Assembly (NCBI GenBank): GCA_000991245.1
Contig: LBRD01000006.1
Span: forward strand, 103,340-167,339
Direction: 5' to 3'
Source: Parcubacteria group bacterium GW2011_GWC1_36_108
GTDB taxonomy: Bacteria > Patescibacteriota > Minisyncoccia > Moranbacterales > GWC2-37-73
DNA length: 64,000 nt
In this document: one piece after another, positions 22,488-56,618 of the stretch
How positions within the stretch are numbered: the stretch's first letter is position 1
Layout of the letters: every line of letters begins with the position of its first letter
Notes under the pieces: model-generated
The model's input: only the letters and a program-made list of their open reading frames with translations
What the model was told of the DNA's origin: nothing
Databases searched by the model: none
Made by a program: the position numbers and the translations under genes

Positions 22488-22671
22488 AGAAAAACCTCCT
22501 CTCTATAGTTTATGATTACTTATCTATAACCTATCATATTGTACTGAAAAACTCAAACAAGTCAACCACACGGCTTTCGCCGAAGTTATAAAGTTCATAA
22601 AGTTACAAGTTTATAAAGTAAATACAAAACCTTACAACCTTACGAACTTTAAAAACCTTACGAACCATTTT

Positions 22672-24553: not shown

Positions 24554-24665
24554 ACAATTACAAAAGTTCATAAAGTTTATAAAGTTCAAATTTTATAAAG
24601 CAAACGCATTCAAATACTTTATAAACCTTAAAAACTTTACGAACCTTTGACTTTCTAAACCATTT
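24549..24665. repeat. AT-rich inverted-repeat spacer, TATAAAGTT family
   Basis: ttcataaagtttataaagttcaaatt...ctttataaaccttaaaaactttacgaacc: tandem tataaagtt words and their complements around a central spacer; same architecture at 17470-17580, 22575-22672, 29655-29828 and 51782-51870. Confidence 0.45.
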
Positions 24666-29668: not shown

Positions 29669-29828
29669 AGTTATAAAGTTCATAAAGTTTATAAAGTTAT
29701 AAAGCAAGAATCGAAAATATTTCATCATTATAATCATAAAGTTCGTAAAGTTCATCAAGTTTATAAAGTAAAAATGCATTCTACTTTATAAACTTTAAAA
29801 ACCTTATAAACTTTAAAAACTTATTAAA
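29655..29828. repeat. AT-rich inverted-repeat spacer, TATAAAGTT family (largest copy)
   Basis: ataaagttataaagttataaagttcataaagtttataaagttataaagc ... ctttataaactttaaaaaccttataaactttaaaaac: six or more direct words, then complementary words. Confidence 0.45.
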
Positions 29829-35070: not shown

Positions 35071-35856
35071 TCATATTTTATTGCGTTTTTCCTCATCATC
35101 CCTTGCGACCATTTCTTTAACGAGGTTTTTATATGATCTTGCTCCTTTAGAAAGCCCATCGAAACTAAGGATTGATTTTCCATAGCTAGGTGCTTCAGCC
35201 AATCTCACGGAGCGCGGAATCACACTTTCAAAAACATGCCCTGGGAAATGATTGCGCATTTCTTTAACAACCTGACGAGCCAATCTGTTTCTGCGGTCAT
35301 ACATTGTTAGCACCGCACCCATGATTTTTAAATTAGGTTGCAAATGTTTTTGTACAAGCTCAATTGTCTGCAGGAGCTGACTCAAGCCCTCCAAGGCGTA
35401 ATATTCGGTCTGCACTGGGATAAGCACTTCATCACTCGCCACAAGTCCATTTATCGTCAATAATCCCAAACTTGGCGGACTATCAATAATGATATAGTCA
35501 TAATCTGTGCGAATCTGTCGCAAAACATCATACAATTTAAATTCGCGATTATCAAAGTGCACCATTTCAACCCCCGCTCCTGCCAAATCTTGTGAACTTG
35601 GCAAAAGATCATGCCCCGCCTCTTCAGCTCTAATAATAACATTTCGCGGGTGTTCGCCTCCAACTAGCGTGCTATACAAGCCTTTCTCCAAATTACGAAT
35701 ATCAACTCCAAGACCAGAAGATGCATTTCCTTGTGGATCAAGATCAACCAAGAGCACCAACTTACCCATTGAAGCCAAGTAAGTTGCAATATTAATAGCG
35801 GTAGTGGTTTTGCCCACTCCGCCTTTTTGATTTATCAGTGAAATAATTTTAGCCAT
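35071..35856 (-). CDS. parA: Chromosome partitioning ATPase ParA/Soj
   Basis: IISLINQKGGVGKTTTAINIA deviant Walker A; overlaps parB in operon order. Confidence 0.9.
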   Translation of the reverse strand: MAKIISLINQKGGVGKTTTAINIATYLASMGKLVLLVDLDPQGNASSGLGVDIRNLEKGLYSTLVGGEHPRNVIIRAEEAGHDLLPSSQDLAGAGVEMVHFDNREFKLYDVLRQIRTDYDYIIIDSPPSLGLLTINGLVASDEVLIPVQTEYYALEGLSQLLQTIELVQKHLQPNLKIMGAVLTMYDRRNRLARQVVKEMRNHFPGHVFESVIPRSVRLAEAPSYGKSILSFDGLSKGARSYKNLVKEMVARDDEEKRNKI

Positions 35857-35945
35857 CGGTCATGTAGCATATATCATATAACATGTAGCATTCCCTCACT
35901 CAGAGTCAACCGCCTTTTTGTTATATGTTATATGTTGTATGTTAT
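35857..35945. repeat. Start-box element copy 3 (4 nt upstream of the parA start codon)
   Basis: tcatgtagcatatatcatataacatgtagca-loop-ttgttatatgttatatgttgtatgttatatg. Confidence 0.45.
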
Positions 35946-36054
35946 ATGAAAGATTTGCCTGTCTTCAGTTATTGTATCACATTGACAATTCAATTTCAAT
36001 CATTTATCATTAGAGAGTACTTTTGATGAAATTAGGCCTTGTTTTAGGCAAAAA

Positions 36055-46136: not shown

Positions 46137-46385
46137 CCTAAATATTCATATTTGCCATTTTATCAGCAATAACATCTATTCTGCTCGCTATTTTAATTTT
46201 TGGCAAGACCTGTGGTGCATAAATGCCTAATTACTAATTCCCAATTTCTAATAAAATTCCCAATATCAAATTTCAAAATTTTAACATTAGAAATTTATTT
46301 TTTATTAGAAATTAGATATTAGACATTAGAAATTTGCAAATAATATATATGCAAATACATATGCAAACATCGCACTCACTTGTGA

Positions 46386-46823
46386 TTAATCTATCTTAAT
46401 ATTATGTCTGCTATGGTGTTTTCTGGCGACTCGAACGCGGGCAGATTCTTTCTCGATTGCTGCCGCTACCCTTGCATATTCCATCTCATTCATTGTTACT
46501 TTTTCTTTTTTAATTTCTTCCGCTCTCTTCCTAGCTTCTTCAGCCCGCTTCAAATCAATTTCGTCGGCTGCTTCAGCCGTGTCAGCCAGCACAACTAGCG
46601 TATTATTATTAAATTCAACAAAGCCGCTTGAAACAACCAACAAGGTTTCTTTCCCGCCCACTTTAAACATAACCTCGCCAGCTTTTAGCGATGCAATATA
46701 CGAACGATGATCCGGCATGATTGTCACTTCCCCATCAGTAACTGGAAGCGTGATCTGATCAACCTCCTGCTCGAAAAGCGTTCGTTCAGGAGTAACAATT
46801 TTGAAATTTATTTTTTTGGACAT
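46386..46823 (-). CDS. atpC: ATP synthase epsilon subunit
   Basis: 145 aa, last gene of the atp operon; N-terminal beta-sandwich pattern IVTPERTLFEQEVDQITLPVTDGEVTIMPDH. Confidence 0.85.
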   Translation of the reverse strand: MSKKINFKIVTPERTLFEQEVDQITLPVTDGEVTIMPDHRSYIASLKAGEVMFKVGGKETLLVVSSGFVEFNNNTLVVLADTAEAADEIDLKRAEEARKRAEEIKKEKVTMNEMEYARVAAAIEKESARVRVARKHHSRHNIKID

Positions 46824-46968
46824 AAATATAATAAATTAATTCCTAATTTCCAATTCCTAATTTCCAACAAAATTTCAAATACTTTTAATTTAAAATTTAT
46901 GCATTGGACATTAAGATTTTATTAGAAATTAGATATTAGATATTGGAAATTATGAAATCAAAAAATTA

Positions 46969-48351
<1,383 letters not shown>

Positions 48352-48579
48352 TTATTTATTAGGATAATTAATGTTATTTAAATTATGTTTATAATTTCGA
48401 ATTTCCAATTTTGAATTTCGAATCAATTTCTAATGCTTGAATTTTTAATGTTTCAAACATTATATCATTCAGATTTGATTCGAAATTCAAAATTCAGACT
48501 TCGAAATTGTTTCGAGAACCATGTTCTATTTGTGGCCTTTTTAAGCCCTAAACAGAATCAGAATCTCGAATTATTGTTT

Positions 48580-48645
48580 GACCTGTCGCTCGCGAGCGAC
48601 GGGTCTTGACTTTTTGGTGATTTGGGTGTATACTATACGGTTGTA
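48580..48645 (+). promoter_or_regulatory. Near-consensus sigma70 promoter (TTGACT-17-TATACT) preceded by a 26-bp GC-rich palindrome (candidate operator)
   Basis: gacctgtcgctcgcgagcgacgggtc (13-bp arms, one G-T mismatch) at 48580-48605, immediately followed by TTGACT (48606-48611), a 17-nt spacer and TATACT (48629-48634). Confidence 0.55.
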
Positions 48646-48694
48646 GTTATTTAAATAAATCGCAACAAAATTCTTTTGCAAGGGGAGTAGTGAA

Positions 48695-48919
48695 ATGAGC
48701 TCAAAACTTATTCAAGTAAATACCTACCATGTCGGTCACAATGGTGGTCCAGGTGGACCAATTAACATGCAACGCTTCATGGATCACTTCAAACTCATAT
48801 CCAAGTTTGATGAGCTCCCAAAAAGCATTAAATTAATTACTGCGGATGGGACAGAAATAGAAATCATGCCAGATGAGTCAACTGGTAATCTATGGGTTTC
48901 TATCTACACGCGCCCATAA
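48695..48919 (+). CDS. Hypothetical 74-aa protein encoded antisense within the atp operon spacer
   Basis: AAGGGGAG SD 8 nt upstream of ATG; own promoter and terminators; no recognisable domain (MSSKLIQVNTYHVGHNGGPGGPINMQRF...). Confidence 0.5.
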   Translation: MSSKLIQVNTYHVGHNGGPGGPINMQRFMDHFKLISKFDELPKSIKLITADGTEIEIMPDESTGNLWVSIYTRP

Positions 48920-48929
48920 CACCCCTTTA

Positions 48930-49028
48930 CCGCTCCGTTCCGAGATTCATTCGGAATGTGAGCGGTTTTTTTATTTTTTCCAAATTTTCAAAACTACTTT
49001 TTTTGTCATTCCGAACTTGTTTCGGAAT
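48930..49028 (+). terminator. Two consecutive stem-loops with T-tracts downstream of the 74-aa gene
   Basis: ccgctc...gagcgg with T-run (48930-48990), then ttccgaa cttgt ttcggaa (49008-49028). Confidence 0.45.
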
Positions 49029-49183
49029 CTAGAAGAGCATGAATGTTCAAGCCCGACGAGATCCTGAAACACCCGCCTCGACTCGCGAGACGATCGCTCG
49101 TCGAAGCGAGGCGGGAGTTCAGGATGACAATATATTTTAAATTTGCATTTTCCTAAGAAGCTAAAAAGCTAAAGCCTAATAAG

Positions 49184-50143
49184 CTACTCAAGGGCTGCTC
49201 TCCCTGCTGAAATCTCAGCGATTTCCTGCGTAATCTTTCCTTGTCTGATTTGGTTATATGCCAGAGTCAAATCCTCACTCATCTCTCCGGCTGCGTCGGT
49301 GGCGTTTCTCATGGCGAGCATTCGCGCAGATTGCTCGGAGGCTTGCGATTCCAAAACTGCGTGGAAAAGCTGCATCTCAATCAAACGCGGAATGATAAAT
49401 TCCAAAACCTCTTCGGGACTAGGCTCAATCTTATATTCAACCATAGGCTCTTCCAATCCATATTCTTTAGCAATAATATCCATTTCAGCAATTTGTTTTT
49501 CAATATCAATTTTTGAAATCGGCAAAACCTGACGAATTCTGGTTTGCTGATTTACAGCACTGACATAATCAGTATACACAACAACAACTTTGTCATATTT
49601 TTTTGCCAAATAATCTTCCATCACAATTTTTGAAAGTGGTTTGATGTCAGCGACAGTCGCAAATTTTCCACCATCTTCAAAAGCAGCGATGATATCTTTT
49701 TGCATTTTTTTCACCATACTCTCACCTTTTTTTCCAATCGTAATAAAATCAATCTTCAAATCTTCGTCTTTGATTTTTGATTCTATTTTCTTTTTTCCAA
49801 TACGGTTTATTTTCAATTTTTCAGGATGCAAAATTTCTTCTTTAATTTTTTTGGCAACTTGCGTGTTAAATGATCCGCAAAGTCCGCGGTTAGAAGTCAC
49901 AGCAATAATCAAAACACTTTTCACTTCGCGCACTTCCAAGAAACCATATCCTTGTGAAGATTCAAAAGCTCGCGCCAAGTTTGTCAGCACACTCCAAGCA
50001 GCATGAGCGTATGGTCTAATCCCCAGCACACTAGCCACTGCGCGCCTCATTTTTGCAGCACTAACCATCTCCATCGCTTTTGTTATCTTGCGAGTGGAGT
50101 TAATAGAGCGTATTCGTCTTTTTATGTCGAGTGATGAAGCCAT
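49184..50143 (-). CDS. atpG: ATP synthase gamma subunit
   Basis: KRRIRSINSTRKITKAMEMVSAAKMRRA N-terminal helix and C-terminal ...AQLTLEYNRARQ-like end (TLAYNQIRQGKITQEI). Confidence 0.9.
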   Translation of the reverse strand: MASSLDIKRRIRSINSTRKITKAMEMVSAAKMRRAVASVLGIRPYAHAAWSVLTNLARAFESSQGYGFLEVREVKSVLIIAVTSNRGLCGSFNTQVAKKIKEEILHPEKLKINRIGKKKIESKIKDEDLKIDFITIGKKGESMVKKMQKDIIAAFEDGGKFATVADIKPLSKIVMEDYLAKKYDKVVVVYTDYVSAVNQQTRIRQVLPISKIDIEKQIAEMDIIAKEYGLEEPMVEYKIEPSPEEVLEFIIPRLIEMQLFHAVLESQASEQSARMLAMRNATDAAGEMSEDLTLAYNQIRQGKITQEIAEISAGRAALE

Positions 50144-50275: not shown

Positions 50276-51781
50276 TTATGTGGTCTGATATATTTCCTTA
50301 AACTCCTTAATCGCCTTTTCCAATCCCGCCACAACGTCTTCTGAAAGTTCTTTCTTTTCTGAAATTAGTGCGATCAATTCTTTAGCATTAGAATCCAAAT
50401 ATTTATGAAAATCTTTTTCCCAAGTTTTGATTTCTTCCACCGCCACATCATCCAAAAATCCATTCGTCAGTGCATACAAGATTGCAACTTGATGCTCAAC
50501 AACCATTGGTTCGTATTGTCCTTGCTTAAGAATTTCAACTGATCGTCTTCCACGTTCAATCTGAGCGCGAGTTTTTTCATCAAGATCAGAGCCGAATTGT
50601 GCAAACGCTTCAAGTTCACGAAACTGAGCAAGTTCAAGACGAATCTTTCCAGCCACTTTTTTCATAGCTTTGATTTGAGCGCTACCACCCACACGAGAAA
50701 CTGAAAGTCCCACATTTACGGCTGGACGAATTCCTTTATAGAATAAATCTGATTCCAAGAAAATTTGACCGTCAGTGATAGAAATAACATTAGTTGGAAT
50801 GTATGCACTAACATCTCCTGCTTGCGTTTCAATAATCGGAAGTGCGGTCATTGAACCACCACCGAAGTCTTCATTAAGTTTCGCACTTCTTTCCAAGAGT
50901 CGTGAATGCAAATAAAAAACATCTCCTGGATATGCTTCGCGTCCCGGTGGACGTTTCAAAATCAAAGAAATCTGACGATATGCCCAAGCGTGACGAGAAA
51001 GATCATCGAACACGATCAAAACATCCTCTCCTTTGTCCATAAAATATTCTCCAAGCGCGCAACCAGAATATGGAGAAATGTATGAAAGCGCTGAAGATTC
51101 AGATGCTCCTGCTACCACAATAGTTGTATATTCCATTGCTCCACGTTTTTCAAGTTCTCCCAAAATACGTGCAATCTTTGATTCTTTCTGACCAATCGCC
51201 ACATAAATACATTTCATGTTCTGACCTTTTTGATTGATAATGGTATCAATTGCAATCGCAGTCTTTCCAGTTTGACGATCACCAATAATAAGTTCGCGTT
51301 GTCCGCGTCCAATTGGAATCATCGCATCGATAGCTTTAATTCCAGTCTGTACCGGCTGATGAACTGATTTACGAGTAATAACGCCAGGTGCAATTTTTTC
51401 TACAGGATAAAATTTATCAGCTGCAATATCGCCTTTTCCATCTACTGGAATTCCAAGCGGATTAATAACACGTCCGATCATTGCATCAGACACTGGAATT
51501 GAAAGAACTTTGCCCGTGGCTTTAACCTCATCACCTTCTTTGATTCCAGTATAATTTCCGAGCACAATTACACCCACGCGATCTTCTTCAAGATTAAGCG
51601 CCACGCCGATTTCCCCATTTGGGAATTCAACCATTTCTGATGCCATAAGCTCTGAAAGTCCAGAAACACGAGCAACACCGTCACCCATTTCAATAACTTT
51701 CCCAACTTTTTCAGTCGAAGTTTCAGTTTTGAATCCTTCGATTTGCTTTTTTAATTGTTCGATAATGAAATCTTTGTTCAT
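50276..51781 (-). CDS. atpA: ATP synthase alpha subunit
   Basis: [19 protein letters not shown] Walker A; 501 aa. Confidence 0.95.
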
Positions 51782-52880: not shown

Positions 52881-53058
52881 AAAATTTTGTAATTTTGTAA
52901 TTTTGTAATTTTTAAATAATGTCCTAATTTCTAATTTTTAAAAATTATAATTTAAGATTTATTTATAAAATTTAAAAATTAAAAATTTGAAATTGCTATT
53001 TTATAATATTCTCATCTCGACTTCCTATTTCTAAGAAGCCGAATGAAAACACTAATAA

Positions 53059-55365: not shown

Positions 55366-55430
55366 TTTTCTTTTTTGTGTCATCCTGAACGAAGTGAAGG
55401 ATCCCTGGCGCTATATCACAAAACTTTCTA

Positions 55431-55721
55431 CTACAAATATCCCTCGAGCAGATCTTTAAATTCAACATTATTCCTTTTAATAAGATCAATTTTCTTTTGT
55501 CGCGTCCAACCCTTTATCCTTTTTTCAGCTACGATCGTATCCATAGCTGTGGAAAAATTTTCATAGAAAACCAATTTATCCACATTGTATTTTTTTGTAA
55601 ATCCTTCAACTTCCTTATTTTTGTGCTGAAAAATTCTACCTACAAGATTACTCGTCATACCAGTATAAAAAACTGTATTGTTTTTATTTGTGACAATATA
55701 TACACAGAATACTTTTTCCAT
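55431..55721 (-). CDS. GIY-YIG nuclease-superfamily protein (YhbQ-like)
   Basis: FCVYIVTNKNNTVFYTGMTSNLVGRIFQHK: GIY...YTG motif and catalytic R/H. Confidence 0.8.
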   Translation of the reverse strand: MEKVFCVYIVTNKNNTVFYTGMTSNLVGRIFQHKNKEVEGFTKKYNVDKLVFYENFSTAMDTIVAEKRIKGWTRQKKIDLIKRNNVEFKDLLEGYL

Positions 55722-55775
55722 ATTAATGTGAATAATATTATTTTGTGCTTTTAAGTAAGGGATTCTTCGCTATGC

Positions 55776-56618
55776 TCAGAATGACAGATAGAGAACTTTT
55801 TTTGCATTTTGTGATGTTGCTTGCGCAACATCTTCAAGCATCACACCTTTCACGTCGGCGATTTTTTGGGCCACCTCTTTGACAAAAAGTGGTTCGTTGC
55901 GGATTCCTTTTTCTAAGGGTCGCGGAGTCAAATAAGGGCAATCAGTTTCAATGACAATATTTTTTAAATCAATTTCTTTGATTAAGCGGTCATAACTTTC
56001 GCCATAGGTAATAATTCCATTTAGTCCAATTTTATACCCAAGTTCAATAAATTTGTTGGCAGTTTTATATGACCCAATAAAGCTGTGCACTATTCCCCTT
56101 TTCTCCACTGGATGGGTTTGCAAAATATCCAAAAGGTCATCATAACCATCCCAACAATGCAGCATTACTGGTTTTTGCACTTCGTTAGCTAATTTTATAA
56201 ATTCAATCAAAGTTTCTTTTTGCAGATTTTTCAAAAATTCCACATCATCATCTTCAGTAAAATGATGATAATCTAAACCAATTTCACCAATCGCTACAAC
56301 TTTTTCATCCTTGGCTAATTCTAAATATTTTTGATAATCAAGTTGTTCGCCTGTTGTTGGAATTTCCTCTTCGGTAAGTTCCTCGGGATCGTGATGAGTA
56401 AAACTCCCCTTTTTTAAATGCACAGGATGGATGCCGACCGCAGCATATATACCAGATTCAAATTTGTGCGCGTATTCAACTGCGCGTTTGCTGGTTGAAT
56501 ATTGCGAACCAACATTAACCACATTCATACCATCTTTAAGACAACGACGGAGTACATCTTCCCCGTCGTCTTTATATGCATTGAAATTTGTATGAGCATG
56601 GGTATCGAAAAGATTCAT
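55776..56618 (-). CDS. tatD: TatD-family metal-dependent DNase/hydrolase
   Basis: MNLFDTHAHTNF N-terminal HxH and conserved internal His/Asp positions. Confidence 0.9.
   Translation of the reverse strand: MNLFDTHAHTNFNAYKDDGEDVLRRCLKDGMNVVNVGSQYSTSKRAVEYAHKFESGIYAAVGIHPVHLKKGSFTHHDPEELTEEEIPTTGEQLDYQKYLELAKDEKVVAIGEIGLDYHHFTEDDDVEFLKNLQKETLIEFIKLANEVQKPVMLHCWDGYDDLLDILQTHPVEKRGIVHSFIGSYKTANKFIELGYKIGLNGIITYGESYDRLIKEIDLKNIVIETDCPYLTPRPLEKGIRNEPLFVKEVAQKIADVKGVMLEDVAQATSQNAKKVLYLSF

Follow-up and report, generated by a model that had tools for sequence, protein, structure and literature searches.

A mosaic of palindromic repeats and an orphan gene cassette in the atpG–atpD spacer of a Patescibacterial genome, a likely insertion hotspot

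How did a gene running antisense to the ATP synthase genes come to lie between atpG and atpD in the Parcubacteria group bacterium GW2011_GWC1_36_108? The question is raised by a 64,000-nucleotide stretch of contig LBRD01000006.1 (hereafter, the window), in which atpG, encoding the F1 gamma subunit (49184-50143, − strand; Pfam ATP-synt, 2.7e-84), and atpD, encoding the F1 beta subunit (46969-48345, − strand; Pfam ATP-synt_ab, 2e-74), are separated by a spacer of 838 bp (48346-49183). This spacer carries an open reading frame (ORF) of 74 codons, named here orf74, on the opposite strand, together with several palindromes. A first-pass annotation of the same letters had described an antisense mini-island, either a mobile insertion or a regulator of atp read-through, and all of the features that it listed were found in place. 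We favor, with moderate confidence, the reading that the spacer is a recombination/insertion hotspot resembling a minimal mobile element site, and not one mobile element.

This reading draws on a comparison with related genomes. A scan of a genome collection with AtpG yielded 80 atp loci (compared loci and contigs are designated by L-numbers, such as L011). An atpG–atpD gap of more than 300 nt was found in 10 of 22 loci resembling the candidate phyla radiation (CPR) versus only 2 of 55 non-CPR loci, for which the median gap was 35 nt. Five of the six closest relatives possessed a spacer of 509-1080 nt with differing, non-homologous cargo, and short spacers of about 40-60 nt, devoid of cargo, were seen in L013 (AtpG 71% identity) and L017 (52%). 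The closest relative, L011 (80% identity in AtpG), holds a GIY-YIG gene; in L018 (Kuenenbacteria), the cargo consists of genes for a Bro-N protein and for a toxin-antitoxin pair, a Gp49 toxin and an HTH protein; in L029 and L030, it consists of 23S-rRNA-IVS protein genes; and in L012, L014, L015, L016, L022, and L024, antisense ORFans were found that are mutually non-homologous. An antisense gene at this position, at first considered unusual, is therefore common in the clade, since these six relatives also possess one. In contrast, orf74 itself was absent from all 80 atp loci (tblastn), so that an old resident gene shared by all relatives does not fit, and the comparison supports the view that 48346-49183 holds inserted, non-ancestral DNA. 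Because the cargo of the relatives differs every time, the spacer reads as a hotspot with interchangeable cargo, having conserved flanks and non-homologous cassettes in different lineages, as a minimal mobile element site does.

The spacers of relatives also contain palindromes of their own. A different GC-rich repeat lies directly 3' of atpG in L012:5027-5190, L015:4950-5070, and L022:4985-5090, as paired hairpins such as CCTTCTCCCTGTGGGAGAAGG / CCTCTCCCAGAGGGAGAGG. In L018:6585-6640, the spacer contains the palindrome GTCATTCCCGC...GCGGGAATGAC, whose arms ATTCCCGC/GCGGGAAT are common to Neisseria dRS3/NTS repeats.

When the spacer was compared by blastn with about 1.5 Mb of related loci, four separate blocks were matched, and the DNA of the orf74 cassette (48610-48945) had no match. 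Since the blocks are separate and the cassette is unmatched, the spacer is a mosaic, in which no fewer than four independent repeat families accompany one unique gene cassette. The idea of a mobile insertion thus held for the insertion of non-ancestral DNA, but not for a single mobile element or mini-island. GC-rich palindromes had also been singled out as conspicuous in this AT-rich genome, and, indeed, only five GC-rich hairpins with a perfect stem of at least 8 bp were found in the window. On folding, the stretch 49000-49135 gave −61 to −65 kcal/mol, with a z-score of about −7.

The block closest to atpD is an AT-rich palindromic repeat (48393-48508) with 54-nt arms made of tandem AATTTNN heptamers that are 78% complementary, and its predicted RNA fold reached −41.9 kcal/mol (z = −7.7). 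Related copies were found in L182/L189 (83% over 116 nt), L143, L152, L107, at 46837-46951 of the window, and at other sites, including other intergenic gaps of the window's atp cluster. The apex of this palindrome holds an extended −10 box, TGATATAAT (48467-48459, − strand), a putative atpD promoter located 114 nt 5' of the atpD ATG. The motif TGNTATAAT occurs 10 times in the window versus 4.0 +/- 1.7 expected, a number that no shuffle reached, and 9 of the 10 copies are on the − strand. It is probable, from these sequence features, that atpD has its own promoter, and the orf74 cassette would consequently lie between two transcription units, not within one transcript. The notion of a gene inserted inside a conserved atp operon thus remains valid for its position between atpG and atpD, but has to be revised for the operon, atpD being probably promoted separately.

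Long AT-rich palindromes of tandem 7-8-nt units occupy many intergenic gaps of the window (46221-46335, 46837-46951, 52891-52988, 29737-29815, 22586-22654, 24563-24638, and 35855-35954), among them almost all gaps of the atp cluster. A −10-like TGnTnnAAT is frequent at their apices, and these repeats may carry promoters; promoters of the extended −10 type may prevail in this genome. Another short AT-rich repeat, AAGCTAAAAAGCTAAAGCCTAA(T/A)AAG, is located at 49153-49183 beside the atpG stop codon, and recurs with 90-97% identity immediately 5' of ATG codons in two unrelated contigs (L184:5994-6024 and L174:674-704).

At the atpG side of the spacer, two hairpins recall a system reported in other bacteria, in which small single-domain GIY-YIG proteins (Ssn) bind and cut single-stranded DNA at the NTS hairpin repeat CGTCATTCCCGCGMAVGCGGGAATCYRG, and in which the nuclease gene is usually bordered by SRM motifs, which are related to NTS (Chenal et al. 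2025, PMC11893778). Neither 'Patescibacteria' nor 'Candidate' appears in the text of that paper. The first hairpin, TGTCATTCCGAACTTGTTTCGGAATCTAG (49004-49032, + strand), parses as TGTCATTCC-GAACTTGTTTC-GGAATCTAG. The second one is inverted (49057-49129, − strand), lies 27 nt from the first, and has the structure GTCATCCTGAAC-T[44-nt insert]TGT-TTCAGGATC; read from 49129 to 49057, it has GTCATCCTGAAC ... TTTCAGGATCTCG, and the insert interrupts its canonical TTGT loop after the first T. The second long GC-rich hairpin of the first-pass annotation is therefore present (49060-49128), but is a composite of an SRM-like hairpin with a separate 44-nt element in its loop. The flanks GTCATTCC and GGAATCYRG are identical to those of the Neisseria NTS as given in PMC11893778, and the oriented flanks CGTCATTCC ... 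GGAATCYRG were found in the window hairpins. We thus regard these hairpins as SRM-like in their architecture and predicted function, although as a diverged variant under the strict published pattern, and this part of the spacer would represent a new, diverged instance of the known Ssn system.

A candidate partner is encoded 6 kb from the spacer: a single-domain, Ssn-like GIY-YIG gene (55431-55721, − strand; PF01541, 1.5e-15) bracketed by SRM-type hairpins at 55379-55403 and 55761-55785, whose product had no PDB relative by sequence. The 21 GIY-YIG ORFs detected in related loci fell into two classes, none of them associated with both kinds of motif. Class 1 is flanked by GTCAT-type SRM hairpins; 7 of the 21 ORFs, all of them class 1 and the window's gene included, have such hairpins on both sides. 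An inverted SRM pair like that of the window was also observed at L172:9013-9091, where another GC-rich hairpin, of 26 nt (CCGTCTGCCGGCGAGGCACGGCAA), occupies the second loop; the uptake of GC-rich hairpins by SRM loops may be recurrent.

Between these repeats lies the orf74 cassette (48606-48976, + strand), which comprises a promoter-like site, a Shine-Dalgarno motif, 74 codons, and a terminator. The near-consensus sigma-70-like putative promoter TTGACT-17-TATACT (48606-48634, + strand) matches the consensus at 10 of 12 positions, as described at first reading, but such matches alone are no commoner than expected by chance, since 5 promoter-like sites were counted in 1.6 kb versus 4.0 +/- 2.0 in shuffles; its assignment is supported by its location 60 nt 5' of the ATG. 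The 74-aa ORF (48695-48919, + strand) is preceded, as had been noticed, by a good Shine-Dalgarno motif, GGGGAG (48682-48687, + strand), read from the sequence 7 nt 5' of the ATG. Two terminator hairpins had been proposed downstream, of which the first (48929-48966) has the properties of an intrinsic terminator: a GC-rich hairpin (−24.2 kcal/mol, z = −6.8) starting 10 nt past the stop codon and followed by a U-tract (T7 in the DNA, the whole terminator spanning 48929-48976, + strand). The second (49005-49029) has no T-tract and is the first SRM-type hairpin.

The product of orf74 appears to be an orphan. Only the protein itself was found in a word-seeded search of 5.8 billion proteins and in an exhaustive HMMER search of 1.84 billion cluster representatives; its NCBI entry names it a hypothetical protein from Candidatus Uhrbacteria bacterium GW2011_GWD2_41_121 (CPR/Patescibacteria, Rifle aquifer). 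No family match was obtained in Pfam, NCBIfam, PHROGs, or PADLOC, nor any fold match, the best Foldseek hit in the PDB having E = 0.36. Its codon score of 0.081 lies between those of genes (0.232 +/- 0.051) and of shadow ORFs (−0.133 +/- 0.135), and its frame had by far the best score of the six.

Several observations weigh against our interpretation. The codon score of orf74 fell short of the lowest value recorded for a long gene of the window (0.132) and was reached by 6.5% of the shadow ORFs known to be non-coding, the AlphaFold model of the protein was uninformative (pLDDT 55), and all of the fetched contigs with this locus were DNA-identical across it, showing no substitutions that could support coding. 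Both putative promoters and the split of the operon were inferred from sequence, and no intrinsic terminator of atpG was visible on the − strand. The published degenerate SRM pattern, HGTCWYN(0-2)YYVSBRHN(0-5)WNVSBRGN(0-2)RNCYNB, had no match anywhere in the window, nor in any of the four hairpins, because the inner stem is A/T-rich here and mismatches the S (G/C) stem positions, and an exchange of cargo driven by Ssn would be an analogy. The low codon score and the low-confidence model, as well as the lack of a homolog, family, or fold match, are also what would be expected if orf74 were a frame left open by accident in inserted DNA that is decaying, and the spacer nothing but repeat debris. 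We consider this explanation unlikely, while granting it some weight: at 39% GC, we estimate from base composition that 74 codons without a stop would arise with a probability of about 0.007 per frame, the orf74 frame far outscores the other five and does better than 93.5% of shadow ORFs, and a promoter, a correctly spaced Shine-Dalgarno motif, and a strong one-way terminator are colinear with it. Because of its codon score, its frame, and these colinear signals, we lean, with some reserve, towards orf74 being a real gene, either young or foreign.

The 26-bp GC-rich palindrome GACCTGTCGCTCGCGAGCGACGGGTC (48580-48605) directly abuts the −35 box of the orf74 promoter, as annotated at first pass. 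It folds at −21 kcal/mol (z = −6.1), no match was obtained in 100 shuffles, and it is terminator-like on the + strand, with the tail TTGACTTTTT. Three related copies, CCYGTCGCTCRCGAGCGACRGG, were found at L139:12631, L163:288, and L186:13619. A palindrome at this position could be the operator of a dimeric repressor, and the orf74 unit might then have been recruited to control the atp genes, its convergent transcription colliding with or terminating read-through into atpD, or its transcript acting as an antisense RNA. The convergence of orf74 with atpG, its promoter close to the consensus, the palindrome directly abutting the −35 box, and the recurrence at this place, in six relatives, of an antisense ORF with its own promoter and terminator are in agreement with such a role. 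However, the antisense ORFs of the relatives are not homologous to one another, L013 and L017 have no insert, so that no conserved regulatory device is seen, atpD has a candidate promoter of its own downstream of the cassette, and the palindrome also occurs in unrelated contexts, once as a plain terminator (L139). A regulatory function thus seems rather improbable.

The closest relative offers another way of reading the block. In L011, the same spacer contains an SRM pair, the GIY-YIG gene, and a second SRM pair, both pairs being inverted, and L014 also possesses an SRM pair immediately 3' of atpG, as in L011. The SRM pair next to atpG is retained in the window, with the location and order that it has in L011, and the whole block might therefore be the remnant of one insertion sequence (IS)-like SRM-ssn-SRM cassette, the nuclease gene of which was later replaced by orf74. 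This scenario has little likelihood in our view: the second SRM pair is missing from the window, orf74 is dissimilar to GIY-YIG proteins and on the opposite strand, the block is bounded neither by terminal repeats nor by a target duplication, and parts of it are found independently elsewhere.

An assembly chimera or sequencing artefact behind the spacer structure, which has no specific support although older GW2011 assemblies (L002, L005) do have frameshifted atp genes, can be set aside as having a negligible probability, because independent assemblies carry the identical sequence: 9 of 10 fetched contigs (22 on record; ENA, NCBI, and JGI assemblies), from different samples and built by different assemblers, were 100% identical over the 1,438 bp of the locus, and the tenth, which stops early, was identical over 1,099 bp. 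In L002 (GCA_000990595.1) and L005 (GCA_000996525.1), atpG, atpA, and atpD are split or truncated (e.g., AtpG as 174 + 128 aa); these genes are intact in newer assemblies, and the breaks are probably frameshift errors of the early ones.

The 44-nt GC-rich palindromic element nested in the second SRM loop (49072-49115, + strand) deserves separate consideration. It is the only copy in the window (covariance model 63.8 bits, E = 6.5e-13), and Rfam returned for the region, at the gathering threshold as well as at E up to 5, only spurious microRNA-hairpin matches. Metagenomes were scanned with the pattern CCCGCCTCGNNTCGN{12,24}CGANNCGAGGCGGG, and the element was found to have a family present in at least 119 metagenome contigs/loci, mostly of GC 0.33-0.49, with 89 distinct sequences. 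All copies orient to one asymmetric consensus, which is free of stop codons in all six frames of translation, and covariance-model matches ranged from 40 to 76 bits. The inner helix shows compensatory changes, with 14 double-change cells, and none of 500 shuffles was as high. Carrier contigs contain roughly one extra copy per 55 kb, and among the 80 atp loci only L015 has a copy. The element remains at least 90% identical across genomes whose housekeeping proteins (AtpG) are down to about 67% identical, and its flanks are biased only towards a purine at −1 and a pyrimidine at +1. Neither this element nor the 26-bp palindrome occurred in IMG/VR viral contigs, and a phage origin of the two was thus rejected. 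Insertion always at the tip of a larger hairpin was also rejected, a flanking stem of at least 6 bp being present in 4-8% of cases versus 1-2% in shuffled sequences.

A large part of this family resides in coding sequences. From about 120 distinct copies, 61-66 are inside long ORFs, and 61 of 63 of these measure 42 or 45 nt. Of the 25 copies with a length not divisible by 3, 21 lie between genes. The element typically adds a 14-15-residue peptide such as PASTRGDDRSSTRGG, with no visible target duplication. This length bias towards multiples of 3 suggests that the insert is translated rather than bypassed. Intron-like RNA splicing was considered but gained no support: trial excision of the 25 copies of other lengths restored two long ORFs (L158 and L183), and 2 joins out of 25 are within chance given 25 trim offsets per copy.

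The 44-mer of the window has a 93%-identical copy lying in-frame in atpA of L015, where it adds 16 residues. At this atpA site, ...IINQ(K/G), the element is present in L015 and L120, and absent from the window (atpA, 50276-51781, − strand), L011, L012, L013, L014, and L016. Here the GC-rich element, 45 nt long, was observed in-frame after ...AIDTIINQ(K/G), adding PASTRGDDRSSTRGG, at L015:2904-2948, L120:2801-2845, and L109:1418-1462. Between L015 and L120, it differs at 1 of 45 nt, versus a divergence of about 20% of positions in the adjoining atpA codons (our count). This near identity suggests a constraint at the nucleotide level, homogenization among copies, or separate insertions into one site. 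An extra segment of 12-16 residues (QTSQKNTEGDGT.., TPRTNADGTQNH..) after ...SEMVEF, absent from the other relatives, was also noted in AtpA of L011 and L013, and may be another insertion-prone loop.

Other host genes, assigned by eye from the flanking peptides, are RfbB-like, ArgRS-like, PNPase-like, and CCA-adding-enzyme-like, besides atpA. Recurrent sites in orthologs were noted for RfbB-like genes (L107:1839, L172:6049, and L175:7045), ArgRS-like genes (L136/L147/L161), CCA-enzyme-like genes (L179/L185/L208), and PNPase-like genes (L104/L144). At the RfbB-like site, the element was found in both orientations, PPRLAETTARRREAG versus PPRVDERS.PRVEAG; either it flips in place or it was inserted there repeatedly.

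As for the means by which such an element may spread, 13 of 125 copies, mostly length variants, lie at most 400 nt from a GIY-YIG ORF. Class 2 of the GIY-YIG genes is YhbQ/UPF0213-like and associated with the GC hairpin, which suggests, short of proof, that class 2 nucleases have the GC element as their cognate hairpin. At L170:8353-8746, a class 2 gene was found between direct repeats of about 80 nt, each containing a 52-nt variant of the GC hairpin, a layout that mirrors NTS-ssnA-NTS. A further module was observed at L191:13705-14115, L195:501-1079, L202:8385-8792, and L207:781-1152, consisting of a 5' tRNA fragment (acceptor strand and D-arm, with the GC hairpin in the D-loop), a YhbQ-like GIY-YIG gene, and a complete tRNA for Gln or Asn. 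Its layout resembles that of a nuclease cassette that entered a tRNA gene and duplicated the 5' part of the tRNA. The possibility that the element interrupts tRNA D-loops was discarded, in-silico removal having restored no tRNA and the copies concerned being in 5' tRNA fragments beside GIY-YIG genes. Literature searches on in-frame palindromic elements in CPR returned no description of the GC-rich element. We tentatively propose, well short of certainty, that the 44-nt hairpin represents an undescribed mobile GC-rich palindromic family of CPR/Patescibacteria, perhaps the cognate hairpin of YhbQ-like nucleases and spread by them.

How the hotspot might operate can be sketched from these elements. 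The atp cluster would be read as two units, one from atpB to atpG and the other comprising atpD and atpC (46386-46823, − strand), which would make the atpG–atpD gap a safe landing place. The orf74 cassette would be transcribed toward atpG and away from atpD, with its terminator acting one way. By analogy with NTS/SsnA in Neisseria, the SRM hairpins may be nicked in single-stranded DNA during replication or DNA uptake, promoting recombination that would exchange whatever cargo is enclosed by the conserved atp flanks. Immediately 3' of atpG, the large GC-rich hairpin would probably act in a REP-like manner, stabilizing or ending the atpG transcript. What was directly observed is that the cargo of the spacer varies, that its repeats form a mosaic of dispersed families, that orthologous sites either carry or lack the GC element, and that orf74 has a gene-like anatomy.

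CPR/Patescibacteria genomes are usually called streamlined; here, one operon gap gathers orphan genes and four kinds of palindromic repeats. The sequences described above would extend the Ssn-nuclease/hairpin system to CPR bacteria, with a diverged motif missed by the published pattern. They also indicate that a short GC-rich element entered the coding sequences of core enzymes, the ATP synthase alpha subunit among them, without breaking these enzymes. Inserts of 14-15 residues of the 'PASTRG...' type in CPR proteins should accordingly be annotated as repeat-derived, and the locus offers testable handles on the origin of new genes and of protein-loop insertions in these bacteria.

The spacer and its repeats can finally be set beside known systems. 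Saunders and Snyder reportedly described the minimal mobile elements of Neisseria as interchangeable cassettes between conserved flanking genes, often with dRS3/NTS borders. Similarly, atpG and atpD bracket non-homologous cassettes across lineages, with SRM-type repeats at the border; in contrast, our comparison spans species and genera rather than strains, the site is inside an operon-like cluster, and exchange by transformation would be hypothetical. With the Ssn/SRM system (PMC11893778), the window shares the same flanks, hairpins occurring singly or as inverted pairs and clustered around other genes, and hairpins on both sides of a single-domain GIY-YIG gene of roughly 96 aa (55379-55785 in the window, and L011). 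It differs by its inner stem (GAAC/GTTC versus CGCG), by its CPR host, and by the foreign 44-nt hairpin in the loop of one copy.

The GC-rich element itself has parallels in other genomes. REP/BIME sequences are short GC-rich extragenic palindromes, often arranged as inverted pairs 3' of genes and not normally found inside ORFs; they are thought to stabilize mRNA and to be spread by an enzyme specific for single-stranded DNA hairpins (RAYT, a Y1 transposase). Short GC-rich palindromes and inverted pairs downstream of genes are common to both cases, but the enzymes associated here are of the GIY-YIG type, and no Y1 transposase turned up in loci screened for GIY-YIG only. The GC clusters of yeast mitochondria, to which the byp elements are related, are short mobile GC-rich palindromes that are mostly intergenic and occasionally coding (var1); they are likewise conspicuous in an AT-rich genome, but the element described here has another sequence and a bacterial host. 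Rickettsia palindromic elements (RPEs), which Ogata et al. are said to have described in 2000, are dispersed and also lie in-frame inside protein genes. Like RPEs, the GC element is a dispersed, conserved hairpin of a reduced AT-rich host, found between genes and in-frame inside essential genes, with the frame kept and with presence or absence at orthologous sites. It is, however, shorter (42-45 nt versus about 100-150 nt), GC-rich, stop-free in six frames, and apparently unrelated in sequence; moreover, its copies remain at least 90% identical across genomes in which AtpG has diverged to 67% identity, and its variants adjoin YhbQ-like GIY-YIG genes. Together with RPEs and mitochondrial GC clusters, it would provide a parallel in a third lineage of reduced AT-rich genomes.

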